Assembly (NCBI GenBank): GCA_020633625.1
Contig: JACKDJ010000008.1
Span: forward strand, 55,881-119,880
From: Myxococcales bacterium
GTDB taxonomy: Bacteria; Myxococcota_A; Bradymonadia; REDH01
Direction of reading: 5' to 3'
DNA: 64,000 nucleotides
Positions within the stretch are counted from its first letter, which is position 1. Every line of letters starts with the position of its first letter. A program made the position numbers and the translations under genes. Below, piece by piece: positions 1 to 19,381 of this stretch. The notes beneath the pieces were generated by a model. The model saw only the letters and a list, made by a program, of their open reading frames with translations. It was not told the DNA's origin and ran no database searches.

Positions 1-322
1 TGTCGCCGGGGTCGACGAAACGAAGGTGGAGCGCCGCCTCGAGACGAGCGCGGTCGATCTCCGTGGGCCAGTTCCAGTCGAAGGCTGCGATTGGCTTGAA
101 GGCCCCGATGTGCGCGCGGCGTTGCCGGCGGTCGAGGCTGCGGGCAGCGCGCTGCTGTGCCTCCTCGTCGGCGAGCCGCTGAAGGAGCTGCAGCGCGGCG
201 CGTGGTGACCGGTTGCTCTGGACGAGGTCCGGCAGGAGGCGGGCGGCGCCGTGCCATCCGAGCTCGAGCAGACGGGCGCTGAGTTCAGCCGCCTCAGCGG
301 CCGGGGGCAGTGTGGCAGGCAT
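1..322 (-). CDS. istB: IS21-family helper ATPase IstB, N-terminal part (continues beyond window start)
   Basis: Read by hand on the minus strand. ATG at 322 overlaps the istA 3' end. Translation: MPATLPPAAEAAELSARLLELGWHGAARLLPDLVQSNRSPRAALQLLQRLADEEAQQRAARSLDRRQRRAHIGAFKPIAAFDWNWPTEIDRARLEAALHLRFVDPGD... This is the usual IstB region upstream of the Walker A. It is absent from the ORF track because it is open at the window edge. Confidence 0.8.
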   Translation of the reverse strand, partial: MPATLPPAAEAAELSARLLELGWHGAARLLPDLVQSNRSPRAALQLLQRLADEEAQQRAARSLDRRQRRAHIGAFKPIAAFDWNWPTEIDRARLEAALHLRFVDPGD

Positions 323-1787
323 CGTAGTCTCCGAGGTTGTGTGTGGAAGGGGCGTGATCCAGGTCGGCCAAGTGTGCGGGGAGCGCGACGGGCACAGCGA
401 GCGCCGCTTCTCTCGCCTTGCCAGAGCCGAGCAGCAGCATGCGGACGGAGGCGAGCCGAGGCGTGCCGCGCTCGAGGGCTTCTGCGATGGCGCGCGTGAC
501 GGCGTCGGCGCCGTGCGTCTCGACGAGCGTGTTGAGCCCGCGTGTGTGGTGCGCGGTCGGTTCTCGCTCTTCGATCAGGCGCTGGAGCAGCTGTGCCGCA
601 TTGGGGCAGGCGGTGATCAGTCGGGCGCGCCCGGAGTGCTCGCGGCTGCGCGGCCGCAGCTCGCGGATCTGTTTGGCGTGCTCGTGGAGCTGGTGGTCTC
701 CGTGTTTGTCCCAGCTGCGCTTGTGCGTGCACACGACCTCGTCGTTGTCGAGGATGCAGACGCGGTCGTGTGTGGCGAGCATGGAGACGGTCTTCCCGAC
801 GTAGCGCGGCGGCACCGAGTAGCGGTTCGTGTCGAGCGTGAGCCACGCTTGCTTGCCGACGCGCATGCCCCGGAGCGGGAACGCAGCGAAGGGCTCGCGC
901 GGCAGCGGGAGCAGCAGCGAGCGCTCGTGTGCCGCGGCTTCGCCGACAGTCTCCGCGCCCGCACGGCTGTGTGCGCGCGTGTGAAGGACCTCGGACCGCC
1001 ACTTCGCGAACGCGTCGATGTATTGGCCGCGCGTGGCAAAGGACGTGCCCGCCAGCAGCGAGTCTCGCAGGTCGCGGACCCGTCGCTCGACGTTGCCCTT
1101 CTCGTTGGGGCGCCGCGGACGGCAGGCGACCGGCTCGAAGCCGTAGTAGTCCGACAGCGCCAGCAGCGTGGGGTGGAAGCGCACAGCGTCGCCGACCCGG
1201 TCGACGACGGCGGTCTTCATGTTGTCGTAGAGGATGCGGCGAGGCACCCCACCCAACCGCTCGAAGGCGTCGACATGGGCCTCGATGAGCGTCGCGAGCT
1301 TCATGTCGTGGTAGAAGCCCACGAAGCAGTCGCGGCTGTACGGCAGCACCACCAGGAGCGCGTACACATCCCGGTCCGTACGGCCGACGCGGACCTTGCC
1401 GAGAGTCGCCCAGTCGACCTGCGCCTCTTCGGCCGGCAGCGGGACGCGCGTGGCGAAGACCTCTGGCGTGCGCTCGGGACGCAGCTTGCGCTGGACGAGC
1501 GCGCGCCGCAGCTGTTTCACGCCTCCGTTGTATCCGCGGTCGCGGATCATCTGGTGCAGCCGCGTCGCGGTCAGGTCCGGGTACTGCTTCAGGACCTCGG
1601 CGACCACGGGCAGGTACGGGTCCACGCCCCAGGCACGCGGAGCGGGGGCGATCGGCTCGGCCGGCCGATGGAGCGCGCAGACCACGGTGTCGCGGTGCAC
1701 GCCGAGCTGCGTGGCGATGGTGCCGATCGTCCAGTGCTCGCGGTAGTAGAGGCGGCGGATGGTGGCTTCGCGGGTGGCGTCAGTCAT
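294..1787 (-). CDS. istA: IS21-family transposase IstA
   Basis: 497-aa ORF with an N-terminal HTH (WTIGTIATQLGVHRDTV). It carries an rve-type DDE core (QVDW..., LLVVLPYSR, ILYDNMKTAV, RPRRPNEKGNVER). Followed by an overlapping istB. Confidence 0.92.
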   Translation of the reverse strand: MTDATREATIRRLYYREHWTIGTIATQLGVHRDTVVCALHRPAEPIAPAPRAWGVDPYLPVVAEVLKQYPDLTATRLHQMIRDRGYNGGVKQLRRALVQRKLRPERTPEVFATRVPLPAEEAQVDWATLGKVRVGRTDRDVYALLVVLPYSRDCFVGFYHDMKLATLIEAHVDAFERLGGVPRRILYDNMKTAVVDRVGDAVRFHPTLLALSDYYGFEPVACRPRRPNEKGNVERRVRDLRDSLLAGTSFATRGQYIDAFAKWRSEVLHTRAHSRAGAETVGEAAAHERSLLLPLPREPFAAFPLRGMRVGKQAWLTLDTNRYSVPPRYVGKTVSMLATHDRVCILDNDEVVCTHKRSWDKHGDHQLHEHAKQIRELRPRSREHSGRARLITACPNAAQLLQRLIEEREPTAHHTRGLNTLVETHGADAVTRAIAEALERGTPRLASVRMLLLGSGKAREAALAVPVALPAHLADLDHAPSTHNLGDYDACHTAPGR

Positions 1788-2407
1788 GACGGACCTCGCG
1801 GCTGGCGCGGTCGGCGCCTCCGGCGTGCGCGACGCGCGTCGCGCGCAGCTTCACGCGCGGCGAGATGATCGGCGAGCGAGAGCCGATGGGCCGACGCGCA
1901 GCCGCAGCGCGCGCAGACGCGCACGGCTGGAGCGAGGGCGAAGGGCGCGTCGGCGACGGCGAGGGCGGTGGAGGGGCGAACCCGAGGAACGGCCTGAACA
2001 TCGGTCTGCTCCGTGAGCGAGGTCGATTCGCCTGGCGTCGGACCGTCCGCCGCCGAGCTTGGCCCATCATCGAGCGGGCGGATCTTGTGGGAACTGTGAT
2101 GACCCACGGAATCGCACACCGTGGGTCGATTCTGGGCCGAGCGGGCACGCTGCCGAGCCCTGTACCGGCGCGCCTGCTCGGCGCGTCGGGCGCGGCCCGC
2201 GTCGGAGCGCCGCCAGCGCCGGCGAGCCTTCGCGGAGGTCGAGAGTCGCGCCAGCAGGCGACACGTCGCGGTGCAGTAGTGGTGGCCGCGGAAGCAGCGG
2301 GTACAGAGATGGAAGCGCACGCCACAGCTGCGGCACGTGCGGATCAGCAGCGCGGTCGCGGGGTCGTGGGTCTCGGGTGGCGTCGGCGCATCGGGATGCG
2401 AGTGCAT
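1784..2407 (-). CDS. Cys-rich hypothetical protein coupled to istA (possible zinc-ribbon accessory ORF of the IS)
   Basis: Internal ATG at 2407 of ORF 1784..2551. Its stop overlaps the istA start as ATGA (1784-1787). Third-codon positions are strongly G/C. Motif CRSCGVRFHLCTRCFRGHHYCTATC, with a second CARCGC. No family recognised. Confidence 0.45.
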   Translation of the reverse strand: MHSHPDAPTPPETHDPATALLIRTCRSCGVRFHLCTRCFRGHHYCTATCRLLARLSTSAKARRRWRRSDAGRARRAEQARRYRARQRARSAQNRPTVCDSVGHHSSHKIRPLDDGPSSAADGPTPGESTSLTEQTDVQAVPRVRPSTALAVADAPFALAPAVRVCARCGCASAHRLSLADHLAAREAARDARRARRRRRPRQPRGPS

Positions 2408-2960
2408 GGTCGAGCGCGAGAAACTGGACCTGCCGCCGCAGAGTCGGCACAAGGCCCGAAGAACGACGGCAACGTCGGCGGAAGAAGCGCCGGGCAAGGA
2501 TGCGACCCCTTGTGGCCCGGCGCTTCGTCGTTTGCAGCCTGCCGATATCAAAGGCGAATTCCTGGAGCGACAGGCGGTGGCGGCCTGCGGCCGCTCCGCG
2601 CGCTCGCCGACGGCTCGCCCGTTCCGCGACCGCAGGCCGCCACCGCCGCCCTCGGCGCCGCAGCCCGCCGAGGCCCGCCAGAGCGGCGCCCGGACGAAGA
2701 GGGAGCCTCGCGACGCTGCGCGCCTCTCTGGCTCGCAGCTGCGCCGCGCCGCTACCGCGGCGGCGGCCTCAGCACGGCGGTGGGGGCAGGCGCCGACCCC
2801 GGACGTTGCCCCGCGATGCCGAAGGCGACACTACGATCGAGAGACGCTTTGGCGACGAGAAGTCTGGAAAAGTGCGGATTCTGACGACCGTCGACAGCCG
2901 GTGCGGCGACGCCCCCGGTCGGCACTGGCCACCACCGCCGCGCTGACGCCGCTGCCGCTC

Positions 2961-3116
2961 TAGCGGCTCCCGCTCACCCGCCCTGTAGCGGCTCCCGCTC
3001 ACCCGCCCGAAGGTAGTTTCGCACCATCCGCCGGACACGCGCTGCCCGACGCCGGCGTGCCCCGATCCACCCGCCCGGCGTGCCCGATCCACCCGCCCGA
3101 GGGTAGTCTGCCCGGG
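2961..3116 (+). repeat. Cluster of REP-like repeats (GTAG/TAG heads followed by a CCCGCCC-rich arm)
   Basis: Tandem (g)tagcggctcccgctcacccgccc x2 (2961-3008). cacccgcccgaaggtagtttc (about 3000-3020). gtgcccgatccacccgccc x2 (about 3057-3098). cacccgcccgagggtagtctgcccggg (about 3090-3116). The ccgcccga[ag]ggtagt core is the same as in the arrays at 55.0 and 56.7 kb. Confidence 0.7.
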
Positions 3117-3379
3117 CCAAGCTCGCGGCGAGCGGCCTCTGGAGCGGACGTCGACGTCAGCTCGAGTACACCGGCCTTGGCTTCCTCGACGAGCTCACCG
3201 CGTCGGCGTGGACGGAGAGCGCGGCCACGAGCGGCGCGCTCTCTGCGTCCCTCGCGAGCTCCTCGTCGACTCCCGGCGCCGGGGCGACGACGACGAGCTG
3301 GGAACGCAACGATCTCGGGACCATCCTCGGCGTCGGCGGGTGGGCCGCCACGCTAGACGGTGGCCGAGCGATCGCATCC

Positions 3380-4936
3380 GTGAACAGCGTCGCGGTCGCC
3401 TGGGACGAGCTCGGCCGCCAGGAGTCGTTCGGTGGTCGCACGGTGGTGTGGGACGACGACGACCTCCCCGAGAAGGTCACGACCGGCGGCGTCTCGGAGC
3501 ACGACATTGTCGACGCGTTTGGTCGTGTCGTCGTCCGCGCGGGCGTCGTGCGCACGTACCTCGGCTCGACGCTGCTTCGCGAAGAAGCGGGCCCGTGGCG
3601 CCGCGATTGGTTCCCGACGGACGACCTCGACCGCCCGGTCGGCTACTCGGTCTACTGCGCGGCCCCGGACCCTGTCGATTGCGGCACGCTCCCGAGCGCG
3701 CTCGGGGCATCGACGACGCTCCCGAGCGGGGGGCTCGAGGCGACGTACCTGCTCGCCCAAACATTCCGCAACGACACGCTCGGTCTCGTCGACGGCGACG
3801 GCAAGCTCGTCGAGGTCTACCGCTATGGCGCGTACGGCGACCTCGAGGTGCTCGACGGCACCACGTCAGCAGCGTTCGCGCCCGCGACGGCGCCACCGTG
3901 CAGCTCCGCCGCCGGCACGTGCGGCTCGCAGTTCGGCAACCCCATCCTGTGGTCGGGCGCGCACTGGCGACCCACGGTCGGCCTCTACGACATGAGGGCG
4001 CGCCAGTACGACCCGCGCCTCCACACGTTCCTCTCGCGAGACCCACTCGGCTACGTCGACAGCTTCGACGAGTGGCTCTACGTCGGGGGAGATCCGTTCA
4101 ATATGTGGGACCCGTTCGGGTTGAACGCGCGGAACGGGCAGGGCGTCCCTTGGGAACCGTTCCCGGTGCCCAACAGCGTTCGCGAAATCGCGAACTCCAG
4201 CTTCGGGAATCCAGACAGTCCGATGAACCGAGGGCTCGGACGGGCGTCCTCAAGTTTCGCGGTCGGCATGGGGACGCTTGCCCTACACCCGGTCGACTCG
4301 AGCCGGGGACTTGTGCTCGCTGGCGGTGCTTGCGTCGGGTCACCTTGGCAGTGTGGGACTCGACTGTCCTCTGCGGTGGTGCGCGTCGCAAGCACCGGAG
4401 AGGGACGCTGGGAGATTGCGGGTGGCTTGGGTTTGATCGCTGCCGGGGGGGCGCCTGGGGCGATTGAGCGGCTCGGTGCTGGGGCAGTGGTTGTTGAGGG
4501 TGCAGGGGGAGTGGTTGTTGAGGTTGGCGAGGCGGCCGGCGCTGGGGCGGTGGTTGTGGAGGGCGGCCAGGCGGCCGGCACTGCTGCCGGGCCCCTAGCC
4601 GGCACCGGCGGGGGGGCCACCAGTCTGTTTCGCGCCGTAACTCAGTCCGAGCTGGACAACATCGCGGCCGCCGGGGGACGGTTCAGCAATCCACCTGGAA
4701 TCGAAGTGAAGTACTTCTCTACTTCGGCGCAAGGGGCGGCGTCGTACGCTCGGCAGGCAGCGCAGGCGTTCTCAGATGGCCCTTTCACGATCGTTGAGAC
4801 GTCGATCGCGGACTCGCTCATCGCACCAACGATGCGCGCCACCGTCGACCGGGGGATCCAGACGATTGTGGTGGGAACGGAGGACCTGGGCGCGCTTGCG
4901 CCCGCGCGCGTCTGGAGCTATACGCCGCTCCCGTGA
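3380..4936 (+). CDS. Orphan, 5'-truncated Rhs/YD-repeat core C-terminus fused to a polymorphic-toxin C-terminal region
   Basis: RHS-associated core signature YRYGAYGD...NPILWSGAHWRPTVGLYDMRARQYDPRLHTFLSRDPLGY...GGDPFNMWDPFGL (DPFGL at 4109-4123). About 270 aa of unrelated C-terminal sequence follow. The frame is open from 3107 with YD-like segments (LEYTGLGFLDELT, WERNDLGTILGV) but has no long N-terminal Rhs shell. GTG at 3380 is only the first possible start. Confidence 0.8.
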   Translation: MNSVAVAWDELGRQESFGGRTVVWDDDDLPEKVTTGGVSEHDIVDAFGRVVVRAGVVRTYLGSTLLREEAGPWRRDWFPTDDLDRPVGYSVYCAAPDPVDCGTLPSALGASTTLPSGGLEATYLLAQTFRNDTLGLVDGDGKLVEVYRYGAYGDLEVLDGTTSAAFAPATAPPCSSAAGTCGSQFGNPILWSGAHWRPTVGLYDMRARQYDPRLHTFLSRDPLGYVDSFDEWLYVGGDPFNMWDPFGLNARNGQGVPWEPFPVPNSVREIANSSFGNPDSPMNRGLGRASSSFAVGMGTLALHPVDSSRGLVLAGGACVGSPWQCGTRLSSAVVRVASTGEGRWEIAGGLGLIAAGGAPGAIERLGAGAVVVEGAGGVVVEVGEAAGAGAVVVEGGQAAGTAAGPLAGTGGGATSLFRAVTQSELDNIAAAGGRFSNPPGIEVKYFSTSAQGAASYARQAAQAFSDGPFTIVETSIADSLIAPTMRATVDRGIQTIVVGTEDLGALAPARVWSYTPLP

Positions 4937-4943
4937 GGCAGTG

Positions 4944-5264
4944 ATGGATACACTTCGCCCCGATGCGTTCGTCCGCGTGACCTTGAAGACCACCCGCGAC
5001 GGTGGCCGAATGGGGCCGCTTCCGAGACCTCGATTCAACTGCCCAGTGTTCTTCGGCGACCAGCGAGAGCACGCGAATGACTGCATGTTCCTGGTCGAGG
5101 AGGCAGACGGCGAGTTGGTGCCGGGGGGGGCTCCACGTATCGTCCCTGTCAAGTTCCTGGCCATCGGGCTCGTGCGGGATGAACTCCGCCCGGGAAACAC
5201 GTTCGTCCTGTGGGAAGGACGGGAGGTGGGGTGGGCGAAGGTGGTTGACGTCACGGATCCGTGA
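4944..5264 (+). CDS. Candidate cognate immunity protein of the Rhs C-terminal toxin (hypothetical, 106 aa)
   Basis: ATG 8 nt after the Rhs stop, same strand: MDTLRPDAFVRVTLKTTRDGGRMGPLPRPRFNCPVFFGDQREHANDCMFLVEEADGELVPGG... Its position is the canonical slot for an Rhs immunity gene. No family recognised. Confidence 0.5.
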   Translation: MDTLRPDAFVRVTLKTTRDGGRMGPLPRPRFNCPVFFGDQREHANDCMFLVEEADGELVPGGAPRIVPVKFLAIGLVRDELRPGNTFVLWEGREVGWAKVVDVTDP

Positions 5265-5388
5265 GATAGCCGATGACCGCCTCGTTCGGACCGACGACAC
5301 GTTGGGCCGGGCCGTGAGGAGGCGGGCGCCGCGTCTCGGACATCGGAGCCAGCTAAGATGCGGCCAGCGCGCGGTGTCTGCTCTCCTT

Positions 5389-5406
5389 CCCGAAGGTAGT
5401 TTCCCC
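5389..5406 (+). repeat. Solitary REP-like unit (cccgaaggtagtttcccc)
   Basis: Same ccgaaggtagttt core as at 3006-3020 and in the 55 kb array. Lies in the intergenic region upstream of ppiB. Confidence 0.5.
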
Positions 5407-5552
5407 TGCTTCGTGACCCCATCTCAGCGACGAGACGATGGCAGGACGGAACATCCCGGCCCGGCGGCAGAGTTGCCCCGCGCCGCTGCGTCCCCTATGG
5501 TCGCCGCGCGGGTCGCGGAGGCCTGCGACCCCCAACTCCCCATCTAGCTGAC

Positions 5553-6068
5553 ATGGCCAACCCGACCGCTACCTTCGAGACCAACCTCGGCTCGTTCACG
5601 GCCGAGATCTTCCTCGCCGAGATGCCCATCACGGCGCAGAACTTCATCGATCTGGCCGAGAGCGGCTTCTACGACGGGCTGCACTTTCACCGGATCATCC
5701 CGAACTTCATGTGCCAGTTCGGCTGCCCGCACAGCAAGGACCCCCGCAGCGGTCGCGCCGGCACCGGCGGCCCGCCGCACGGCACCATCGCCGACGAGTT
5801 CCTGCCGACGGCGAAGTTCTCGAACGAGCCCGGCACGCTGAGCATGGCAAACACCGGGCGGCCGAACAGCGGCGGCTCGCAGTTCTTCATCAACACCGTC
5901 CACAACTCGTTCCTCGACTGGTTCGACAACTCGACGCCGTCCAAGCACCCCGTGTTTGGTCGCGTGAACGGCGGCATGGACGTCGTGAAGAAGATCGAGG
6001 CTCGCGGCTCCCGCTCGGGCGCCGTCGAGAACCCCGTTCAGGTCATCTCGATCAAGATCGCGCGCTGA
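5553..6068 (+). CDS. ppiB: Peptidyl-prolyl cis-trans isomerase, cyclophilin type
   Basis: 171 aa with cyclophilin signatures: [40 protein letters not shown]. Confidence 0.95.
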
Positions 6069-9531: not shown

Positions 9532-10359
9532 CTAGAGGCGCGCCTTCATCGCGGCGTACTCGGCCTCGTTCTCGCGCGTGGGCAGGTCGGACCGGCCACG
9601 CATCATCGCCTGGATCGCCGCCACGCGGTTCTCCGGGTTCGGGTGCGTCGACAGGAACTCGGGCGGATGTGCGCCTCCGCTGAGCTTGGTGAAGAAGTCG
9701 ACGAAGCCCTGCGGCGAGTAGCCCGCGCGCACGAGGTAGCCGAAGCCGACGCGATCGGCCTCCGACTCGGCCTCGCGGCTGTAGCGCAGCATCACGCCCT
9801 GCTGCACGACCTGCGACGCGATCTGCGCGACCAGACCCGGGTCGCGCCCCAGCGCCATCGCCGTCGCCGCCTCGAGCCCGTACGCGGCGACCAGCCGCTC
9901 CGCGACATGCCGTTGCGTCACGTGCGACACCTCGTGCGACAGCACCGCCATCAGCTCTGCCTCTGTGTCGGCCGTCTGCATCAGCCCCGAGTACACGTAG
10001 ACGAACCCACCCGGGATCGCGAACGCGTTCACGGTCTCGTCGTCGTCGACCAGCACGAAGCTGAAGGTGATCGCAGGGTCGCGGTCAGAGGCGACCGCTA
10101 CGACCTGCGCGCCGAGCCGCGCGACGTAGGCCTGCAGCTCTGCGTCCGGGTGCATCGTCAGCTCCGAGCGCAGCTCGGTGTCGAGCTCGACGCCGAGGGC
10201 GATCTCCTGGTCGACCGGCAGCAGCACGCTGGCTGCGATGTTCTCGGCCGCTCCAACCGCGGTCTGAACGCCGGAGCACGCGAAGAGCCACAGCGAGGCG
10301 GCGGCGAACGCGACGAAGACGCGGCGACGGGTCGCGGGGGGCAGGGTGGGGGAGGGCAT
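9532..10359 (-). CDS. M48-family zinc metallopeptidase (exported)
   Basis: HEVSHV (HExxH) motif, FAIPGGFVYVYSGL, ESEADRVG. N-terminal signal sequence. Confidence 0.9.
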   Translation of the reverse strand: MPSPTLPPATRRRVFVAFAAASLWLFACSGVQTAVGAAENIAASVLLPVDQEIALGVELDTELRSELTMHPDAELQAYVARLGAQVVAVASDRDPAITFSFVLVDDDETVNAFAIPGGFVYVYSGLMQTADTEAELMAVLSHEVSHVTQRHVAERLVAAYGLEAATAMALGRDPGLVAQIASQVVQQGVMLRYSREAESEADRVGFGYLVRAGYSPQGFVDFFTKLSGGAHPPEFLSTHPNPENRVAAIQAMMRGRSDLPTRENEAEYAAMKARL

Positions 10360-10425
10360 CCAGAGGCTCCAATCGATAGGTTCGCGTCAACGGACGCTCC
10401 CCTGCGTTCGCACTGCAAAGCGGTT

Positions 10426-10451
10426 GGCGCAAGTCGAACGTTCGCGCGACG
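10426..10451 (+). repeat. Left copy of the 26-nt direct repeat bounding the island
   Basis: ggcgcaagtcgaacgTtcgcgcgacg. The right copy at 18382-18407 differs at a single position (T/C). Confidence 0.85.
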
Positions 10452-11136
10452 GCAGCCGGCGGGTTCAGCGCGAGCTGCTCGACGCCGGCGCGAAGTGCAG
10501 CCGGACGCGCGACGTCTCTGCTATGCGGCGCCAGACCCTCATTCCCCGGGCCCGCAAGCGCTTCAAGGCCACCACGGACTCGCGGCACACCCTGGGGGTC
10601 GCCCCGAATCTTCTTGACCGCGCGTTCCAGGCGGCCGGGCCGAACCATGCGTAGGTAGGCGACATCACGTACATCTGGACTCGGCAAGGATGGCTCGACC
10701 TCGCCGTTCGCCTCGATCTCCACTCCCGTCGCGTCGTTGGTTGGGCCACTCCGGCCCTGAACGACCGTCACCTGGTTCTCGCCGCCCTTCGGATGGCACT
10801 CGGTACCCGGCGCCCGCCGCCAAGCCTGCTCAACCACACCGACGGCGGGAGCCAGTACGCGAGCGGCGATTATCAGAGTACGCTCACCCGTGCGGGCCTC
10901 GTGTGCAGCATGAGCCGCGAGGGGAACTGCTGGACAACGCTCCTGCCGAGAGCTTCTTCGCCTCTCTCAAGGTCGAGGAGATCGCCCATCGCGACTTCGA
11001 CACACGAGACCAAGGACGGCTCGCAATCCTCGAGTACCTCCGCTGGTACAACGCCCATCGCCGTCACTCCACACTCGGCAACCTCTCACCCGCTCGCTTC
11101 GAAGCCCTCACATCACCTGCCCACATCGCCGCGTGA
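10426..11136 (+). pseudogene. IS3-family transposase OrfB remnant (5'-truncated, in-frame stop plus frameshifts)
   Basis: Three frames concatenate to ERSRDGSRRVQRELLDAGAKCSRTR...RFKATTDSRHTLGVAPNLLDRAFQAAGPNHA*VGDITYIWT...LLNHTDGGSQYASGDYQSTLTRAGLVCSMSREGNCW/DNAPAESFFASLKVEE...YLRWYNAHRRHSTLGNLSPARFE. This is a classical rve/DDE core. There is no OrfA. Confidence 0.85.
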
Positions 11137-11198
11137 CCTCTCGTCCACTGTCCGAATTCCTTGAGCCACCCCACTGCCACTGGACGGCGGTACGCGAG

Positions 11199-11535
11199 AC
11201 CCGCAGCAACGTCGGCACCGCGCTGTCCAACGCCCTGCGCGGCATGGTTGCGGAAGAGAAGGACACCCCGCCCGAGGAGGACGAGGACCGCGGGAGGGCC
11301 GCGCTGACCGAGTTCTTCCATGAGGTCGAAGGGGACGAGACCCCCGTGGTCGTGACGCGCGTAGTCGACGCCATCGACGAGATCGTCCGCGTCGTCGTTT
11401 CCCGGCTGGCAGCCGACCTGGGCAGGCGACCGCGAGGTGAAGAAGGTAGTCCGCGGAAGGCGGTTCAGGTACAGGCTCCACTCCGACAAGGAACTCTTCG
11501 AGAAGGCGTACGGCTACATCGTGCAGTACTACTGA
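11199..11535 (+). pseudogene. hsdR: 3' remnant of a type I restriction enzyme R subunit gene (hsdR C-terminal domain), frameshifted
   Basis: ...ALRGMVAEEKD...ALTEFFHEVEGDETPVVVTRVVDAIDEIVRVV, then a 1-nt frame change near 11397, then FPGWQPTWAGDREVKKVVRGRRFRYRLHSDKELFEKAYGYIVQYY* (stop at 11533-11535). This matches my recollection of the HsdR C-terminal tail (...FxGWQ...ERxVKKxL...LHxDxxLFxKAYxYIxxYY). Not verified by search. Confidence 0.6.
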
Positions 11536-11545
11536 GAGAGGCCGG

Positions 11546-13204
11546 ATGGGCGAAGACGCACAGTACCTCTTCTACGTTGGTGATGCGCTGCCTCCGAACC
11601 AGTCCGTTCCCTGGTTCAGACTGCAGCCTGACCACTGGGATGACTTCGGACAACAGACGCTCTTTCATCTAACACTGACGCTCCCGGACGAGGACGTCAC
11701 GGTAGCCGTCGGCAAAGTGAAGATTCTCAGCCGGGAGCCGCCCGACGAGGAGGCTGGGGTCCGAAGATCAGCGACGATGCTCCCTCGGGCATTCAACGAA
11801 CTCTCGTCGCAGGAGTTCTGTTCACTCGGTCAAACCTCCACATACTACTTCGCTCTCGCTGGCTTGGCTAGGCACGAGACAGCGCCGATCACTGCGTCGC
11901 AGGTCGTAGAGGCGTTGGCAGATGTCGGATTCGTCGACCCTGACGATGGATGGTGGCTCGGCGACGACCGCTACCAGTCTTCCCTCCTCCGATTCGCTAC
12001 GGCCTACGCTGCTCGCCGCGACGCCGCTGCCCTTCTACGGGGTGAGAGTCCGACGTCCGACGACTCCGCGTCGCTGCCACTGCCGAACGTGTTGACCCAC
12101 GTGGTGAAGCCGCCGGCGTACGACTTTCGTTTCGACGCGACGACGCGGCTTCCGGGGCGGGTGAATGTCCTGGTTGGCAGGAACGGGTCAGGGAAAACGA
12201 CGCTGCTTGCGGATCTCGCGGATGACTTGGCCCGGACCCTCCACCGGGGCGCGGCGTGGCACCGGTACCTGCCCGAGTTCACGAAGGTGATCTTCGTGTC
12301 CAACACGCTGCTCGATGCAGACCGCCTCGCGTATCTCGTCCGGGACACCAGCCGGAGATACGAAATCGCTTTCATCGGTCTCGCTGCGAACTCGCGGGTC
12401 CCACTCGACGCAGCCATCCAAACTTTGTTGGACCGAGCGGAGTCAGGTGAACCGTGGGCTGAGGTCCTTGCGGAGGTCTTCCCGGATCCTGCTGCCTTGG
12501 AGGGCTTGTTGCCGGCGAAGAACGAGAGCGCGCTCGTGGCAACATTGGTGAACGCTCTTGAGGCGGTCAGCGGAGACGACGAGTGGAGGCGATTCGCTAA
12601 GGACCACTTCGATGACGAAGGACTGTGGCCGGGACTGGTGGATGAGCCACGACGTACCGTGCTGCATAGGATGAGCGCAGGCCACCGCTCGCTCGCTTTG
12701 GTCTACGCCGGGTTGTTCCGTGAGGTCGATCGTCGCTCCCTGGTGCTTCTCGACGAGCCAGAGAACTTCCTCCATCCGAGCCTCATATCTCGATTCCATC
12801 ACCAGTTGAGCGACCTCCTTGAGCGGAGGAAGGCTTTCGGGATCGTCGCGACCCACTCACCCGTCTTCGTTCAAGAGACCGCTCGCCGTTTCGTGACGGT
12901 TATCGAGCGCGCCGGAGCGACGGACGCGCGTAGCACCCAGGGCCGACGGCGAACGGGAGCTTGGCTCTCTAGGCCGCAGTTCGAAACGTTCGGCGAGAGT
13001 ATCGACAACCTGACCGAGTATCTCTTCGGGGTCGATTTCCGCGCGAGCAATTGGCGTTCGGTGCTCGTCGAACTCGCCAAAGCGGGTTGTACTGACGAGT
13101 ATCTCGCTGAGATGCTTGGCCACAAGCATCGGCTACCTCCACTTGCCCGGACCTTCCTAGAACTCGCCCGTGCTCGGCACGCCGATAAGGTCAACGACTC
13201 ATGA
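11546..13204 (+). CDS. ABC/SMC-type (AAA_15/21-like) ATPase with an unassigned N-terminal domain of about 200 aa; PtuA-like
   Basis: Walker A GRNGSGKT (aa 211-218, nt 12176-12199). Signature-like MSAGHRSL (aa 376-383). Walker B LVLLDEPENFLHP (aa 399-411). H-loop ATHSP. Starts 10 nt after the hsdR-remnant stop. Confidence 0.85.
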   Translation: MGEDAQYLFYVGDALPPNQSVPWFRLQPDHWDDFGQQTLFHLTLTLPDEDVTVAVGKVKILSREPPDEEAGVRRSATMLPRAFNELSSQEFCSLGQTSTYYFALAGLARHETAPITASQVVEALADVGFVDPDDGWWLGDDRYQSSLLRFATAYAARRDAAALLRGESPTSDDSASLPLPNVLTHVVKPPAYDFRFDATTRLPGRVNVLVGRNGSGKTTLLADLADDLARTLHRGAAWHRYLPEFTKVIFVSNTLLDADRLAYLVRDTSRRYEIAFIGLAANSRVPLDAAIQTLLDRAESGEPWAEVLAEVFPDPAALEGLLPAKNESALVATLVNALEAVSGDDEWRRFAKDHFDDEGLWPGLVDEPRRTVLHRMSAGHRSLALVYAGLFREVDRRSLVLLDEPENFLHPSLISRFHHQLSDLLERRKAFGIVATHSPVFVQETARRFVTVIERAGATDARSTQGRRRTGAWLSRPQFETFGESIDNLTEYLFGVDFRASNWRSVLVELAKAGCTDEYLAEMLGHKHRLPPLARTFLELARARHADKVNDS

Positions 13205-14052
13205 TCAGGCTTGGGGCACCGGTTGACCTTGTGGACCCGGCCCCGTCGCAGGCCGCCTGGGCGGCGATGGTGCGGCGTCGGAAAGGACAGCCGCGAACAC
13301 GGTTGCAGGCCATTGCAGGCACGGTTGGCGCTCGATTCCAGGCCTACCTGGCTGCGCAAGGGGACTTCACTCAGTTCGCGGCGAGCACGTGGCGCCACAA
13401 CGATGGCGCAGTCGGTACGGACCTATATGAGTGCTATCGCTCAGGGCAGAGCATTGACGCAGCCGTCGTAACGTCAGCGCGCAGTGTGCAGGTCGGCTAC
13501 TGCCCGTATTGCGGCATCCGCTTGGGCCGGAAGGCCTTTGACCGCAAAGACCCTTGTGACCACCACCTGCCGCGGTCGGTGTTCCCCGAGTTCAGCGTGT
13601 TCGCGCCGAACCTCGTTACGGCGTGTTCCTCCTGCAACGACACCAAGAACGACGACTATCAGTCGCCCGCGGGCACACGCCTGTTCTTGCACCCCTACTT
13701 CGACGATTGCCTACGGGAGCAGCTTGTCGCAGCCACGGTGGAACCTGTCGACGGTGGCACGCCGCTCGTACGTTTTCACGTCGTCTTTCCGACGCGGAGA
13801 GCCGAGGCGCCACTCGTCTACGCGCACATCGCTAAGCTCGATGTCCTTGCTCAGCTGGAAAATGAGGCTACCGCTCAACTACAAGCCCACCTCAAGGTCT
13901 GTGACGAAGATGCGGCAAGAGCCGCTAGGGCGCTCCGGGCAGCGGCCCAATCTGACCTTGCTGGTCGGCCCAACGACCCAGTGGCTCACGCGCAGCTGGC
14001 AGCGTCGGAGTCGCCTTACTTGGCCGAGATGATAGTGGCGTGCCGTCGGTGA
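13201..14052 (+). CDS. HNH endonuclease, PtuB-like
   Basis: ATGA overlap with the ATPase gene. HNH core CPYCG...DHHLPRSVFPEF...NLVTACSSCNDTKND (nt 13501-13650). Confidence 0.85.
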   Translation: MIRLGAPVDLVDPAPSQAAWAAMVRRRKGQPRTRLQAIAGTVGARFQAYLAAQGDFTQFAASTWRHNDGAVGTDLYECYRSGQSIDAAVVTSARSVQVGYCPYCGIRLGRKAFDRKDPCDHHLPRSVFPEFSVFAPNLVTACSSCNDTKNDDYQSPAGTRLFLHPYFDDCLREQLVAATVEPVDGGTPLVRFHVVFPTRRAEAPLVYAHIAKLDVLAQLENEATAQLQAHLKVCDEDAARAARALRAAAQSDLAGRPNDPVAHAQLAASESPYLAEMIVACRR

Positions 14053-14357
14053 GCGCGCCCTGACCTATGCAGCCGACCAGCCCACCGCCAATGCCATCTC
14101 GGCTGCGTCCTGGGGACGTGATCCTCATTTCCCGATCCAGGTGCTACGGGAGGCCGACCCTGGAGCACACGACGTCCCTCCCGACCTGGGATGCGCGTTT
14201 GGTGCCACGGGGACTGGCCGTTTCGGCAGAAGCTGTACCTGAACGCATAGCGCGCCGGAGGTGTCGCTCGAGAGTGGCGGGGACGTGTCGTCTCAGCGTG
14301 GCACCCGATTCGTCGGCTTGGTCTTGCGCTCTGATGCGCGTTGCCCGACGGCTTTCA

Positions 14358-14392
14358 TCGCGACTCGCGACTCGCGACTCGCGACTCGCGAC
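14358..14392 (+). repeat. Heptanucleotide microsatellite (TCGCGAC)x5
   Basis: Five perfect tandem copies inside the 420-nt non-coding spacer between the convergent HNH gene and the nuclease operon. Confidence 0.9.
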
Positions 14393-14473
14393 GCCGACCA
14401 CGATGACACGGTCGATGGACCAGCCCCTCCGATGGGCCGACCCGCGGTGTGTCGTGCGAGCCGGTATCGCCGG

Positions 14474-15391
14474 CTAGCCGGGCCACGGGTCGGTGAAGCG
14501 GACGGCGTCCGGCCCTGCGCGTTCGAACCGCGCAACCCGGAACTCGAGGCCGTCGTCGGCGAGGCGTTCGTTAAGCCACGTGAGAGGTGACCGTTCGAGC
14601 GCGAACACCAAGGGGTGCAGCTCCTCGGCGAGCAGCCACATGACGGTGCGCTCCGCATTCCGAGCAGCACGGGCCCCGTCCCACTCCTCGGACCACGCCG
14701 CCGTCGGGTGCTCCGCGAAGCGTCGCAGGAGCTGCGCGTAGGTGAACGCCTCGGGGAGGATGCCCACGGTCGCATTGCCCTGGACCTTGAGCTCGACGAG
14801 GTGGAGCGTGCGCGACGCCTCATCGAACGACCAAAGGTCCGCCTGCGCGCCGTTGCCGGGGAAGAGGCGCGTATCCCTGGACTTCACGCCGTCGAAGAGC
14901 CCCAGCGGGAACTGCCGCTGCAGCGGCCCCATCGGGGTGTTCGCGTGCCCGGTGAGCAACACCTCCATCTGGTGCTCGGCAGTGCCTGCGTCGCCCGACG
15001 CCGCTCGTGGCCCAAGGGGCGCGTTCATGACCGCACCGTCAGGGATGCGCCAGGGCGCGATGCCTTCGACGCGGACGCGATCCCCGAGGGCACTGGAGAG
15101 TTCGGTCAGCATGAACCGGGCGCGCCTGGCGTGGGGGCCGTCCGGCACCGGGCCGTCGATCTCGATGACCGTGTTCAGGCGCTCGCCTCCCGCGACCTCG
15201 AACCAGTAGCACAGAGCCAACGCGTACCAGGGGACCGACGGGCCCAGGGTCTGGATGTTCTTGCCAACCGCGGTTCCCGGCAGCCGGGCGTGCAGCTCAT
15301 CTCCCCGCAACGTCCACTCCGCGGCGCTGGGCAACCGGATGCTCTGCCGGCTGAGGTGGCGGCGAACAGTCTTCAAGACGACGTCGATCAT
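14474..15391 (-). CDS. Hypothetical protein with a PD-(D/E)xK nuclease-like motif (operon gene 3)
   Basis: ATG at 15391 overlaps the upstream stop as ATGA. Motif, numbered from that ATG: E143 (HQMEVLL), D185 (QADLW), E200-x-K202 (LHLVELKV), followed by Q. No family name assigned. Confidence 0.65.
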   Translation of the reverse strand: MIDVVLKTVRRHLSRQSIRLPSAAEWTLRGDELHARLPGTAVGKNIQTLGPSVPWYALALCYWFEVAGGERLNTVIEIDGPVPDGPHARRARFMLTELSSALGDRVRVEGIAPWRIPDGAVMNAPLGPRAASGDAGTAEHQMEVLLTGHANTPMGPLQRQFPLGLFDGVKSRDTRLFPGNGAQADLWSFDEASRTLHLVELKVQGNATVGILPEAFTYAQLLRRFAEHPTAAWSEEWDGARAARNAERTVMWLLAEELHPLVFALERSPLTWLNERLADDGLEFRVARFERAGPDAVRFTDPWPG

Positions 15392-16389
15392 AGTCCGTAG
15401 CGCTCCCGCATGTAGCTTGCCCACAGGGGCCACGCGTCGTCACCGGCGCGAATCATCTGGCCCGCCGGCAAGCTCACGATCCGCCCGGAGTCTGCGACGG
15501 TGGTGCGGTAGTGCTCCCAGTGGGGGAGCACGTCGGGGTTGTCATCGTGGTGAACGAGAACCAGCCACGCCTCGTCGATGCCGCCGTCCGCTTCCAGAGC
15601 GAGCGCGAGAGCGTGTTGGCGCATCGGTTGTTGGCGGTCGCCTGCGAACGGACAGGGACCATCGGAGCTGCCGGGGAAGGCCTGCGCGACCGATCCGAAG
15701 GCCCGGTCGAAGATCTCCCAGTACCGGCGGTTCCGTGCCTTCCCATAGGGCCGGGTCAGGTAGCACGCGGTCGGCTCCGCCAAGAACGTGGCGGCCGATT
15801 CGCACACATCTCGCCGTCGGTTCCCGCGACTCTCCCGCCCCCCACATGGCGTGAAGCCGCCTTCCGAGAGTTTCACCTCCAGGAGAATAGCGACCGAGCG
15901 GCTGTCGGCGCGAGTTCCCCAGACGACCGCGTCGATGGCGCTCGAGGACTCGTCCTCTCTGGGCGAATCTCCGTCGATCTCCGCCAGGTACCGTCCCGGT
16001 GGCACCCACTCGATGTCGACGCGATCGACACGTACGTCATCGAATCGGGCGCCCAACGCCGCAACGACCCACGACCCGGCGTCCGGGGGTAGGAAGAGGT
16101 TGAACGCGAAGACCATCGAGCTGTGCAACGCCGCGGCGTGCGAATGCAGCCGGATCCCCTTCTCCGCGACCAGGTTGAGGGCCCGCTCGCGGAGCTCGGG
16201 GTGCACGCCGTCGGTCCAATGATCCCACAGCGGCGAAACCCGCACGCTTGGGTCATCGTGCTCCGCCCGAGCCCGGTAGCGAAGGCAGTGTCCGAGGAGT
16301 TGGCGGGCGAAGGCCGTCGGTTCGAACCCCGCTCTACCGCGTCTCCTCGTGCCACGCGGCCGACTGCCAGCGCCGGAGTCGCGAGGCAC
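15388..16389 (-). CDS. Hypothetical protein with a PD-(D/E)xK nuclease-like motif (operon gene 2)
   Basis: HSSMVFAFNLF, DIEW, then D153 (AIDAVVW), E171-x-K173 (ILLEVKLSEGGF). Start is uncertain. GTG at 16389 overlaps the upstream stop by 1 nt, and GTG at 16245 is an alternative. The first 48 aa are Arg-rich. Confidence 0.65.
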   Translation of the reverse strand: MPRDSGAGSRPRGTRRRGRAGFEPTAFARQLLGHCLRYRARAEHDDPSVRVSPLWDHWTDGVHPELRERALNLVAEKGIRLHSHAAALHSSMVFAFNLFLPPDAGSWVVAALGARFDDVRVDRVDIEWVPPGRYLAEIDGDSPREDESSSAIDAVVWGTRADSRSVAILLEVKLSEGGFTPCGGRESRGNRRRDVCESAATFLAEPTACYLTRPYGKARNRRYWEIFDRAFGSVAQAFPGSSDGPCPFAGDRQQPMRQHALALALEADGGIDEAWLVLVHHDDNPDVLPHWEHYRTTVADSGRIVSLPAGQMIRAGDDAWPLWASYMRERYGL

Positions 16390-17114
16390 TACCGGCTCCC
16401 AGCGTCCGGCGGAGCCGAGTTCGCGTCCGCCGGACCCTCGGGGAGCGCAAGTACGGCCTGATGGGCCGCGGCCATGACGCGCTCCGCTGCTCGCCGAAAC
16501 CGCCTGGCGCCCATCGCCTCCTCGTCGAAGTCGACCGCGATCGCCGTCCTGCCCTTGACGTCGTCGATCACCTCGTGGGGGAGGGCGTCGCGGCCCAGCC
16601 GCTCCAGTTCCCGCAGAACCGCATCTTTCACGGCGCGTCGAGCGTCATCTTCCGGCGTTCCGTCTCGGCCAAGGATGACCAGGTTCAGTTTCGACACGGT
16701 GATCGCGACCACGCCCTCGGAGAGTGGTGAGACCGGAACGAACGATGCCCGACGCCTCCCCGTGCTGGCCTGGTGGAAGAGGTACCGACCGCCCTTCGCA
16801 CCAGCCTCCGGGTTGTAGCCTTGCCTGTCGTACTTGGGGCCTTGAAGCTGCGACGGATACGCGGACTGAACGGTTCGGACGGCGTCCTCGCCGGCCCGAA
16901 GGAACCGTTGCCCAGGCGCGAGGTCGGTCCGAACCAGGCGCGCGGCGAAGAAAGCGGCGAAGACCGGGACCAGGGCGCCGCTGACGTCCTTCAGTGCGTC
17001 GGCAAGTGTCTCCCCGGAGATCCCGCGATACATCAGCCCCCACGCCACAGCGAACACGACGAGGAGGGCGGCTCCCCACTTCTCGAGCGCTTCTCGAATC
17101 CTCTCTGCGTCCAT
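16389..17114 (-). CDS. Hypothetical membrane protein, 2 predicted TM helices plus a soluble C-terminal domain (operon gene 1)
   Basis: Read from ATG 17114: MDAERIREALEKWGAALLVVFAVAWGLMY...GALVPVFAAFFAARLV, then about 170 aa of non-repetitive sequence. The ORF is open to GTG 17264, and ATG 17150 is also possible. Third-codon G/C is high throughout. Confidence 0.6.
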   Translation of the reverse strand: MDAERIREALEKWGAALLVVFAVAWGLMYRGISGETLADALKDVSGALVPVFAAFFAARLVRTDLAPGQRFLRAGEDAVRTVQSAYPSQLQGPKYDRQGYNPEAGAKGGRYLFHQASTGRRRASFVPVSPLSEGVVAITVSKLNLVILGRDGTPEDDARRAVKDAVLRELERLGRDALPHEVIDDVKGRTAIAVDFDEEAMGARRFRRAAERVMAAAHQAVLALPEGPADANSAPPDAGSR

Positions 17115-17269
17115 CGCCGCTCCCGGTCCATGCCGCGCGTGCCGCAGCATCCGCGCGGCTGCCTCGCCTGTAACACACGCAACGACGCGGATCCCGTGTG
17201 CCGAGCTAAGAGGGCGGCTCAGGACGACTCGGGCACCATCGACTTCCCATCCCGGCTCGACCACTCCTT

Positions 17270-17708
17270 GATGTCAGCGTTTACTCCGAAGCAGCACTGC
17301 TTCGGGCCATGCCCGGTGATTGCTGCAACACAGCGGAAGTGGCTCCTCGGGCTTCCGGCCGCGGCCGCGATACTGGCCCTGGTTGCTCCGTCGTCGCTGC
17401 CGCTCCCGGCTCTGCTTGGGATCCCGTGGGGTGGCGAGTTCATCGGGTCCGTGGTGAGTCGCCACGGAGTTCGGCTGACGCGGGTCTGCCTCGAACCCAC
17501 GTCGCTGCGGTTCGAGGCCCACACGCCGTGCCGGTCGGAGGGTCAGAGACACCTCTCTTCCCGTCTGTGCGAACGGACGATCGTGGAGTTCCCGCACGAG
17601 AGCCTCGTGCGGGTTGCCCGTCACGCGGACGGGATTGAACTCTCGTCGGGGCACGTGTCGTCGCCTCCGACTGCCAGCTTGGCATTGGACCGGCGGACGA
17701 GTTCCTGA
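17270..17708 (+). CDS. Hypothetical small protein (possible signal/TM segment)
   Basis: ATG 17270, divergent from the nuclease operon. About 80% G/C at third positions over 17270-17620 (hand count). WLLGLPAAAAILALVAPSSLPLPALLG is a hydrophobic stretch. Its 3' end overlaps the convergent ORF below, and the two share codon phase, so the extent is uncertain. Confidence 0.35.
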
Positions 17709-17944
17709 AACCAGATGGCGGCGACCGCCATCAGGCGCTCGTGGGCCGCACTGGATTCGCCGGTGTGCGTCAACCGGGCGGCGAGGGCCGCGAGGTGGGT
17801 GCCCACGTCCCGAACGCGCCATTCCACGAGCTCGGCGCCCCGGTCGGAGAGCATGCGGTCTCGGATCCACGTGACGCCGAGCCGCGCCCCGGTGTCTTGA
17901 AGCCGCTCGCACGACCAGGAATCCCAGCGCTCGGTCGCCCCCAT
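17621..17944 (-). CDS. Hypothetical small protein
   Basis: MGATERWDSWSCERLQDTGARLGVTWIRDRMLSDRGAELVEWRVRDVGTHLAALAARLTHTGESSAAHERLMAVAAIWFQELVRR... Balanced composition, high GC3, no family recognised. Confidence 0.4.
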   Translation of the reverse strand: MGATERWDSWSCERLQDTGARLGVTWIRDRMLSDRGAELVEWRVRDVGTHLAALAARLTHTGESSAAHERLMAVAAIWFQELVRRSNAKLAVGGDDTCPDESSIPSA

Positions 17945-18381
17945 GGAAAGTCCGCCGGTGGACGGCACGTGGTGCCCCGCGCGTTCGCCTCGGTCTGCAG
18001 CAGGTGCGAGAGATCTAGACAGATTCGACCCCTGGCGCGTCGCTGGCGGACGCGAGGAACTCCCAAACGTTCACCTCGCCCGGATGCCAGTCGATCGGAG
18101 GCCACCCGGATTCTTCGCCAGTACTGCTGGTGGTACTCGTCCTCGTCGACAACACCGAGACACCTCGTGGACGCAGCGTACGCCGCGCTCGAGGGCGGCG
18201 CAGAGCGCGGCAAACCTTCGTAGTCCCACGATGAACGCGACGCTGTCCTGAATCGCGCGGCGGCGCCCGATCAGCATGGCGTGCGCGTACGGGCCGCGAT
18301 TCGTCAAGCCGTCCCGTCGTTCGACCGGCTGGTCCGGCTGGTCGCCGCTGCACTCCGCTAGCCGAATCCCGCAGCACCACA

Positions 18382-18407
18382 GGCGCAAGTCGAACGCTCG
18401 CGCGACG
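18382..18407 (+). repeat. Right copy of the 26-nt direct repeat bounding the island
   Basis: ggcgcaagtcgaacgCtcgcgcgacg, 25 of 26 identical to 10426-10451. The flanks are unrelated on both sides. Confidence 0.85.
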
Positions 18408-18490
18408 CGACCCCGCCGCGGCGTGCTTGTGTCGCGTGCCGCCGTCCGACTACCACCCGTGCCAGCGAACCCACGACACCCGAGGCCGCC

Positions 18491-19381
18491 ATGATCTCAC
18501 CGCTGTTCGACCCCGCCCGCTGGACCGAAGTCCCCGGCTTCGACTTCACCGACATCACGTACCACCGCTGCGTCGACCACGGCACCGTCCGGATCGCGTT
18601 CAGCCGCCCCGAGGTCCGCAACGCCTTTCGTCCCAACACCGTCGACGAGCTCTACCGCGCGCTCGACCACGCCCGGATGTGGTCCGACGTCGGCTGCGTC
18701 CTGATCACCGGGAACGGGCCGTCGCCGCGCGACGGCGGCTGGGCCTTCTGCTCCGGCGGCGATCAGCGCATCCGCGGTCGCGACGGCTACAAGTACGAGG
18801 GGAGCGAAGGCGTCGACGCCGCCCGACTCGGCCGCTTGCACATCCTCGAGGTGCAGCGCCTCATCCGCTTCATGCCAAAGATCGTCATCGCCGTCGTGAA
18901 CGGCTGGGCCGCCGGCGGAGGCCACAGCCTCCACGTCGTCTGCGACCTCACCCTCGCGTCGCGCCAGCACGGAATGTTCAAGCAGACCGACCCCGACGTC
19001 GCTTCGTTCGACTCCGGCTATGGCTCCGCGCTCCTCGCGCGCCAGGTCGGCCAGAAGCTCGCGCGCGAGATCTTCTTCATCGGCGCCGACATCACCGCCG
19101 AGCGGGCCGCCCAGATGGGCATGGTCAACGCCGTCGTCGACCACGAAGACCTCGAGCGCGTCGCCCTCGAGTGGGCCGCCGCCATCAACTCGAAGAGCCC
19201 CACCGCCATGCGCATGCTCAAGTTCGGCTTCAACATGATCGACGACGGCATGGTCGGACAGCAGCTCTTCGCCGGTGAGGCCACACGGCTCGCCTACGGC
19301 ACAGACGAGGCCCGCGAAGGCCGCGACTCGTTCCTGGAGAAGCGGCCGCGCGACTACAGCCGCTTTCCGTGGCACTTCTGA
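18491..19381 (+). CDS. menB: 1,4-dihydroxy-2-naphthoyl-CoA synthase
   Basis: 296 aa of the crotonase family with MenB-specific features (FCSGGDQRIRG, VNGWAAGGGHSLHVVCDLT, C-terminal RPRDYSRFPWHF-type tail). Confidence 0.95.
   Translation: MISPLFDPARWTEVPGFDFTDITYHRCVDHGTVRIAFSRPEVRNAFRPNTVDELYRALDHARMWSDVGCVLITGNGPSPRDGGWAFCSGGDQRIRGRDGYKYEGSEGVDAARLGRLHILEVQRLIRFMPKIVIAVVNGWAAGGGHSLHVVCDLTLASRQHGMFKQTDPDVASFDSGYGSALLARQVGQKLAREIFFIGADITAERAAQMGMVNAVVDHEDLERVALEWAAAINSKSPTAMRMLKFGFNMIDDGMVGQQLFAGEATRLAYGTDEAREGRDSFLEKRPRDYSRFPWHF

Follow-up and report, generated by a model that had tools for sequence, protein, structure and literature searches.

What kind of system is encoded by three tightly packed genes that join a small membrane protein to two different nuclease-like proteins, and does it belong to the immune systems already on record? 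The question is raised by a 64,000-nucleotide stretch of DNA from a Myxococcales bacterium (assembly GCA_020633625.1, contig JACKDJ010000008.1, positions 55,881 to 119,880), hereafter the window, in which three minus-strand open reading frames (ORFs) at 14474-17114 encode a protein with two transmembrane (TM) helices, g1, and two proteins with PD-(D/E)xK nuclease motifs, g2 and g3 (Table 1). An initial annotation of the window had proposed these genes as an undescribed defense operon without a methyltransferase, helicase or ATPase. Its coordinates were confirmed, as were the ATGA overlap that forms the g2/g3 junction and the 1-nt overlap of g1 and g2, in which the final G of the g1 TAG stop is the first base of the g2 GTG start, and Pfam and NCBIfam scans of g1-g3 found none of the three enzyme classes. 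We find that the conserved unit is g2 together with an adjacent partner gene, not the triad, and that g1 is a lineage-specific accessory outside this widespread module. The reading that we favor, with a probability of about 0.45, is a heteromeric, methylase-independent two-nuclease defense module to which a membrane adaptor is joined in this lineage.

The g2 nuclease and its partner genes

The family of g2 proved to be a described one, which corrects the initial annotation, where the gene stood without a family assignment. The protein matches the Pfam families REase-ARP (PF22558; 70.2 bits, E = 2.8e-19) and PDDEXK_13 (PF20796; 57.9 bits, E = 1.3e-15), each above a gathering threshold of 27, and its homologues form at least 292 clusters, with both Pfam domains in every one listed. 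The proposed catalytic motif D153/E171-x-K173 is kept across 39 homologues of 44-62% identity, in which E127 and H82 are invariant as well. The same 39 proteins share four invariant cysteines 3' of the ExK motif (C182, C196, C209 and C246; window ~15653-15846), which may form a metal site, possibly Zn or Fe-S. Hydropathy gave no TM segment in g2, and its profile matched no PDB sequence. REase-ARP and PDDEXK_13 are widespread, computationally defined families that have already been catalogued, and because the full Pfam name of PF22558, 'Restriction Endonuclease associating with ARP', records an association, one had already been noticed computationally; our literature search found no experimental characterization of REase-ARP or PDDEXK_13, nor the meaning of 'ARP'.

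To survey the neighborhoods of g2 relatives, we scanned one genome per species (185,579 genomes) with a pattern-based search, the counts of which are lower bounds, and delimited neighboring ORFs with a crude longest-ORF caller. This g2-seeded scan recovered 63 loci, almost all from metagenome-assembled genomes (MAGs), in Myxococcota, Binatia, Chloroflexota/Dehalococcoidia, Alpha- and Gammaproteobacteria and Acidobacteriota. There is mostly one g2 locus per genome, and two loci (L039 and L055) both derive from record OZ244723.1. An adjacent, same-strand gene for a partner of ~300-330 amino acids (aa) with an E...D...ExK signature is present in 54 of the 63 loci; g2 comes first, usually with an overlap or a gap of no more than ~20 nt before the partner, except in four loci, where the partner is upstream.

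The partners belong to at least four sequence families, namely A4 (38 loci), the g3 type (eight loci), F3 (six loci) and F4 (two loci), with no partner detected in nine loci, and most g2 relatives pair with a partner of a type other than g3. The E...D...ExK signature can be aligned across all four families, and D182, E196 and K198 are invariant in A4. None of the partner families, g3 included, has a Pfam model, and the A4 profile matched no PDB sequence. A first BLAST graph had placed g3 and A4 in one large family, a grouping that was rejected when hidden Markov model (HMM) and hhalign comparisons showed nothing beyond a D..ELK motif; we attribute the spurious link to ORFs that had been extended into an alternative frame of the conserved g2 gene. 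On a neighbor-joining tree of g2, partner type is clade-correlated yet polyphyletic, which suggests that partners have been exchanged relative to the g2 tree. A g3-seeded metagenome scan returned 12 loci, some of them redundant with the genome loci, and g2 is directly upstream in eight of the ten that are informative and absent from the other two. Further pairs of g2 and g3 occur in L004 to L007.

The strongest link between g2 and g3 is covalent fusion. In two proteins REase-ARP is followed by a g3-like domain (P0155, 680 aa; P0165, 705 aa), and in two others the g3-like domain comes before REase-ARP (P0232, 650 aa; P0235, 641 aa). The linkers measure ~15-70 aa, and the fusion pairs come from compositionally very different organisms, of lineages both high and low in guanine-plus-cytosine (GC) content.

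The third gene, g3, is a member of a large and unnamed superfamily. A word-indexed search gave 12 close homologues, and when the family profile was run in a full HMMER scan, 745 representative clusters, defined at 50% identity, reached E ≤ 1e-3, of which 363 reached E ≤ 1e-10. The motif proposed for the protein (E143, D185, E200-x-K202) is conserved: these residues and E139 are invariant in 18 homologues, and among 74 diverse members of the superfamily E200 is invariant and E139, E143, D185 and K202 are each at least 90% conserved. Searches of g3 against Pfam, NCBIfam, PADLOC and PHROGs gave no match, nor did searches of the g3 and g3-superfamily profiles against PDB sequences, and a Pfam scan of the 74 sampled members yielded nothing meaningful (one marginal Dsl1_C match, E = 0.0075). 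Hydropathy gave no TM segment here either. An AlphaFold2 (AF2) model of g3, with a mean predicted local distance difference test score (pLDDT) of 91.5 and a predicted template modeling score (pTM) of 0.90, contains a C-terminal domain with an alpha-beta-beta-beta-alpha-beta core that bears the motif in the canonical PD-(D/E)xK layout, with E139 and E143 on helix 138-147, D185 on strand 183-190, and E200 and K202 on strand 195-202, followed by helix 211-227. This core is preceded by an N-terminal domain (~1-120) for which Foldseek found no fold match.

Because Foldseek support is weak to moderate, we call the fold of g3 probable and not proven by structure search. The best PDB match was SfsA (4dav; E = 0.01, probability 0.69), with HincII a weak one, and the best BFVD match had an E of 1.9e-4; BFVD entries annotated as PD-(D/E)XK, exonuclease VIII or VRR-NUC appeared only at E values of 2.6e-3 to 0.4. 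The proposal that g2 and g3 are not obvious paralogues was borne out, since at the available sensitivity the two proteins align with an hhalign probability of 5.6%, confined to the motif region. In a separate protein (P0221, 770 aa) a fusion joins a g3-like domain, at residues 37-311, to a region of metallo-beta-lactamase (MBL) fold that matches the PADLOC effector models LmuA, Avs1a and RTasMBL.

The membrane protein g1 and the mobile cassette

All three genes are real. In the window, where GC content is ~70%, GC at third codon positions is 0.79, 0.80 and 0.88 for g1, g2 and g3, and the codon-position GC pattern is coding-like. This DNA is also present in another public assembly (L079), where an independent gene caller gave identical genes of 241, 333 and 305 aa. 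Compared with a 91%-identical copy of the cassette at another locus, L007, the genes have zero indels and ratios of nonsynonymous to synonymous substitution (dN/dS) of 0.22, 0.17 and 0.27, which indicates purifying selection on each of them. No sigma-70-like promoter was found at the locus, terminator-like sites numbered one, a count no greater than chance, and there were no Rfam families within 10000-19000.

Alignment of the window to L007 with blastn is limited to the cassette (Table 1) and does not extend into the flanks, and its edges fall ~24 nt before the start codon of g1 and ~28 nt beyond the stop codon of g3. Next after the cassette come an IS630-type transposase and a VWA gene in L007, and a Septu-like pair in the window. 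As the homology stops at the operon ends and the flanks are unrelated, g1, g2 and g3 have moved as one 2.7-kb unit, and the cassette has been transferred between contexts. No terminal repeats, direct or inverted, could be discerned convincingly at its ends, nor anything resembling attC. A phage or plasmid origin was rejected, with no relatives of g2 in IMG/VR or GenBank phages, none of g3 in GenBank phages, and only remote plasmid matches.

The two TM helices annotated in g1 are supported by hydropathy, with two 19-residue windows above 1.6 on the Kyte-Doolittle scale (starting at residues 14-15 and 43) that correspond to spans at ~14-33 and 43-61. The distribution of charges points to an N-in/C-in topology, and the remainder of the protein is a ~180-aa alpha/beta domain that is predicted to be cytoplasmic. 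We found 13 homologues, all of which start at the same Met(-Asp), and the start is therefore placed at the ATG at 17114 and not at the longer GTG at 17264. Invariant residues are E133-G134 and D195-x-D197-E198, the latter in a VDFDE segment that overlaps a match to Toprim_3 (E = 3e-4, 21.5 bits) below the cut-off of 27.2. Foldseek searches with the AF2 model, of which the pLDDT is only 68, gave no PDB fold match and no significant Toprim match.

In every readable context a g1 homologue lies directly 5' of a gene with a PD-(D/E)xK motif, in four architectures. It precedes g2 in the window and L007; a divergent 740-aa REase-ARP protein, with an 8-nt overlap in L008, L011 and L094 and a gap of 38 nt in L009 and L010; and, by motif inspection only, a 247-aa protein with WDALAV...ILVEAKAH in L012-L015 and a truncated ORF with SDIFVLAK...LVVEGK in L095 and L096. 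The g1 family may represent a reusable membrane adaptor for nucleases. The claim of a conserved three-gene unit stands for the pairing of g2 and g3 and fails for the triad, which recurs once, in L007; no g1 relative occurs in the other g2- or g3-seeded loci (63 and 12 scanned), no conserved third gene was found around pairs of g2 and a partner, and there is otherwise no conserved gene upstream of g2.

Several of these loci have features of their own. The large REase-ARP protein, of at least 740 aa (L008, 890-3112; L094, 753-2774), is always preceded by a g1 homologue and consists of an N-terminal REase-ARP region with all g2 motifs and a C-terminal extension of ~410 aa, for which a g3- or A4-like identity found no support. 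A 217-aa gene upstream of g2 in L004 was considered as a g1 homologue and rejected. In L082, the closest locus with g2 and g3 outside the cassette (54-59% identity), another small 2-TM protein, one that has a SHOCT-like tail, is encoded at 2361-2684, with 376 nt separating it from g2 downstream; it bears no relation to g1, and its position near g2 and g3 may be a coincidence. The most divergent g1 homologue (45% identity; L095, 1-1636, and L096) is directly downstream of a Mod-like methyltransferase, the C-terminus of which resembles a Mod-like ORF of L093, on plasmid pA of Phenylobacterium sp. LH3H17. There (62-5674), a distant REase-ARP-like gene annotated as hypothetical (1732-2742) is flanked by a Res-like ORF with an ETK nuclease motif at its end and by a frameshifted Mod-like methyltransferase ORF with a DPPY motif, an arrangement that places this relative, as judged from the ORFs, within a type III-like restriction-modification (R-M) locus.

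Defense, repair or addiction

Since their genes are coupled, occur as fusions in both orders and keep both active sites conserved, g2 and g3 are best viewed as a two-nuclease module. In the mechanism that we propose, they would be the two halves of an obligate module and would form a heteromer with two working active sites that jointly cleave DNA, so that the pair would act as a restriction-like or abortive effector against foreign DNA. The conserved catalytic core would be g2, and the exchangeable ~300-aa partner would set target or trigger specificity, by way of its divergent N-terminal domain. In this lineage g1 would anchor the nuclease to the membrane or gate it there, and the three genes travel as a 2.7-kb cassette, which has here landed in a defense island. 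Action independent of a methylase is probable because the module is without a methyltransferase or NTPase. Heteromer formation, the DNA substrate, the defense role and the gating by g1 are what we infer from the gene arrangement and the motifs, the defense role by guilt by association.

A defense effector appears most likely because the module is patchy, mobile and repeatedly near conflict genes. Among the 150 nearest neighbors of pairs of g2 and a partner in the loci scanned, the raw listing includes HipA, PIN, WYL, type II methyltransferases, IetA, PDC-S candidates, PD-T4-6, mad6 and DDE transposases, with methyltransferases only few in number. A Res-like gene also belongs to the conflict-system context outside the window. 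The proposal of a defense operon draws support from this context and loses some from the housekeeping contexts found at several loci. In one Binatia MAG (L024) a pair of g2 and an F3 partner directly follows priA, def and fmt, and because of this position after housekeeping genes a universal defense-island location is disfavored. In two other Binatia MAGs (L029 and L075) the upstream ORFs are ~790, 181 and 325 aa, sizes that match the priA-def-fmt of L024.

This Binatia locus is one of several observations that weigh against a defense module of the proposed form. The neighborhoods of g2 and its partners are heterogeneous and contain many metabolic genes. HMM and profile-profile comparisons found no significant similarity of the partner families to each other, with only the motif linking them. 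Relatives of g3 also stand alone (L001, L002/L003, L087 and L091), and pairing is for this reason not obligate for g3. The membrane protein is absent from nearly all loci with g2 or g3, and its AF2 model is of low-to-moderate confidence. No modified-base reader or other device for telling self from non-self was identified in g1-g3 with Pfam and NCBIfam, and PADLOC, NCBIfam and PHROGs held no match for any of the three proteins.

The main rival is that g2 and its partner are a housekeeping or accessory nuclease pair of DNA repair or recombination, such as a structure-specific heterodimeric endonuclease or resolvase, the island location of which is incidental. This explanation, which we consider unlikely, would account for the unusual conservation of g2 across Myxococcota, Chloroflexota, Binatia and Proteobacteria (44-62% identity), for the mostly single g2 locus per genome, for the Binatia pair beside priA-def-fmt, for the lack of a methyltransferase and for the absence from phages and near absence from plasmids; it would also suit the four invariant cysteines of g2, a pattern that the metal clusters of repair nucleases resemble. 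It is at odds with a very patchy distribution (at least 63 loci among 185,579 species genomes), with several replacements of the partner family across the g2 tree, with the movement of the cassette between unrelated contexts beside transposases, with the recurrence of toxin-antitoxin, R-M and defense-candidate genes nearby, and with the fusion of a g3-like domain to a defense-type MBL effector in P0221. An architecture of two tightly overlapping genes, of which one encodes a conserved component and the other a partner that varies, together with the mobile-cassette behavior and the presence of HipA and PIN among the neighbors, might alternatively be due to a selfish toxin-antitoxin-like or addiction module, in which one nuclease would be the toxin, the other would neutralize or regulate it, and g1 would be an extra regulator. 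We hold this to be quite improbable, given that catalytic motifs are complete in both proteins across hundreds of clusters, that fusion in both orders is atypical for a toxin and its antidote, and that both proteins, at ~300 aa, are far above typical antitoxin size.

A further alternative concerns g1 only, which may be a hitch-hiking and non-functional neighbor of a true unit made up of g2 and g3 alone. Its lack of relatives in the other g2- and g3-seeded loci agrees with this, as do the g1 homologues beside genes other than REase-ARP and the unrelated genes upstream of g2 in L004 and L082. The 1-nt overlap of the g1 stop and the g2 start, the position of g1 within the shared cassette boundaries, the purifying selection on it and the four architectures in which it is 5' of a PD-(D/E)xK gene, including the 740-aa REase-ARP protein with its 8-nt overlap, argue the other way, and a mere hitch-hiker is in our judgment rather unlikely.

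How the proposed two-nuclease defense module relates to known systems can be examined by family and by architecture. The initial annotation could assign the operon to no named system, and this holds for the defense databases, from which searches of PADLOC, NCBIfam and PHROGs returned nothing, but not for g2, which is already part of described Pfam families. In PADLOC-DB 2.0 no family matched g1, g2 or g3 at E ≤ 1, and at E ≤ 0.1 there was no match for the four fusions, the A4 and F3 representatives or the 740-aa REase-ARP protein. Two proteins gave marginal, insignificant matches only, to PDC-S18 for the F4 representative (E = 0.052) and to PDC-M38B for the 247-aa protein of L012 (E = 0.029).

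BbvCI, Bpu10I and BslI are type II restriction endonucleases that act as heterodimers of two distinct catalytic subunits. Like them, the pair studied here consists of two different PD-(D/E)xK polypeptides with their own active sites, encoded by adjacent and coupled genes; unlike them, the cassette is without a cognate methyltransferase, one is rarely nearby, and the partner subunit is exchangeable among unrelated families. No similarity of the g2 and g3 profiles to solved restriction endonucleases was found. The lack of a methyltransferase in the cassette or its flanks also sets the locus apart from classical R-M types I-III. The type IV enzymes Mrr and McrBC are modification-dependent and methylase-free, and the cassette resembles them in being nuclease-based, in having no methyltransferase and in its island location, and differs in that neither a modified-base reader domain nor a GTPase/NTPase was detected in g1-g3 with Pfam and NCBIfam. 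Shedu consists of SduA, and Kiwa of the TM protein KwaA together with KwaB. With both systems the cassette shares an effector of PD-(D/E)xK type, and in the window it shares with Kiwa a small multi-TM protein directly upstream of a cytoplasmic effector; it has no match to SduA, KwaA or KwaB, it encodes two nucleases, and the 2-TM g1 is not conserved with the pair.

Should the pair prove to be an immune module, it would be a compact system of ~2 kb without a methylase or ATPase and with two active nucleases, one conserved and one modular, and one would have to ask how the cell's own DNA escapes cleavage. The module occurs commonly among uncultured Chloroflexota, Binatia, Myxococcota and Proteobacteria, which defense catalogues cover poorly, and the g3 superfamily (~745 clusters at 50% identity) has so far had no family model or annotation. 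A broader proposal, that REase-ARP and an exchangeable second PD-(D/E)xK protein constitute an undescribed and widespread methylase-free two-nuclease immune family, with a conserved core, a swappable sensor or cutter and g1-like optional envelope adaptors, appears to us somewhat doubtful. Even with a role in repair, the pair would be a new heteromeric nuclease, defined by its fused and split forms, that merits biochemical work.

Surroundings of the cassette

Table 1. Features of the cassette and of the adjoining region, with positions in the window.
Feature	Position	Strand	Description	Evidence
g1	16389-17114	minus	ATG start, 241 aa, 2-TM protein	ORF and start codon
g2	15388-16389	minus	GTG start, 333 aa, PD-(D/E)xK nuclease	Pfam REase-ARP / PDDEXK_13
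g3	14474-15391	minus	ATG start, 305 aa, two-domain PD-(D/E)xK-like protein	conservation and AF2 model
g1-g2-g3 cassette	14446-17138	minus	~2.7 kb	91% nucleotide identity to L007
Septu-like pair	11546-14052	plus	convergent with g3	PADLOC, Pfam, NCBIfam
PtuA-like ABC ATPase	11546-13204	plus		PADLOC PDC-M01A, E = 1.5e-69
PtuB-like HNH protein	13201-14052	plus		PADLOC PDC-M01B, E = 4.8e-30
hsdR C-terminal remnant	~11289-11534	plus		tblastn against plasmids, 54% identity to annotated type I R subunit
rve_2/rve_3 integrase-core transposase fragment	10690-11136	plus		Pfam

The Septu-like pair and the hsdR remnant, which had been named as neighbors of the operon, were both confirmed, the former by PADLOC matches and the latter by its tblastn identity. 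The pair scores best on the PADLOC candidate PDC-M01, above canonical PtuA/PtuB. It is a system separate from the cassette: it is on the opposite strand, it differs in GC content, and it is absent beside relatives of g2 and g3 elsewhere, with no PtuA or PtuB in 78 related loci and hence no co-conservation with the cassette. Between the PtuB-like gene and g3, which converge, the intergenic DNA contains five perfect tandem copies of the 7-bp unit TCGCGAC (14358-14392), a repeat that is absent from L007 and lies just beyond the cassette edge. The GC content of the Septu-like pair is ~0.63, lower than the ~0.69-0.70 around it, which suggests a separate acquisition. Beyond the pair, the rve and hsdR fragments (10690-11545) look like the decayed remnants of an old insertion hot spot.

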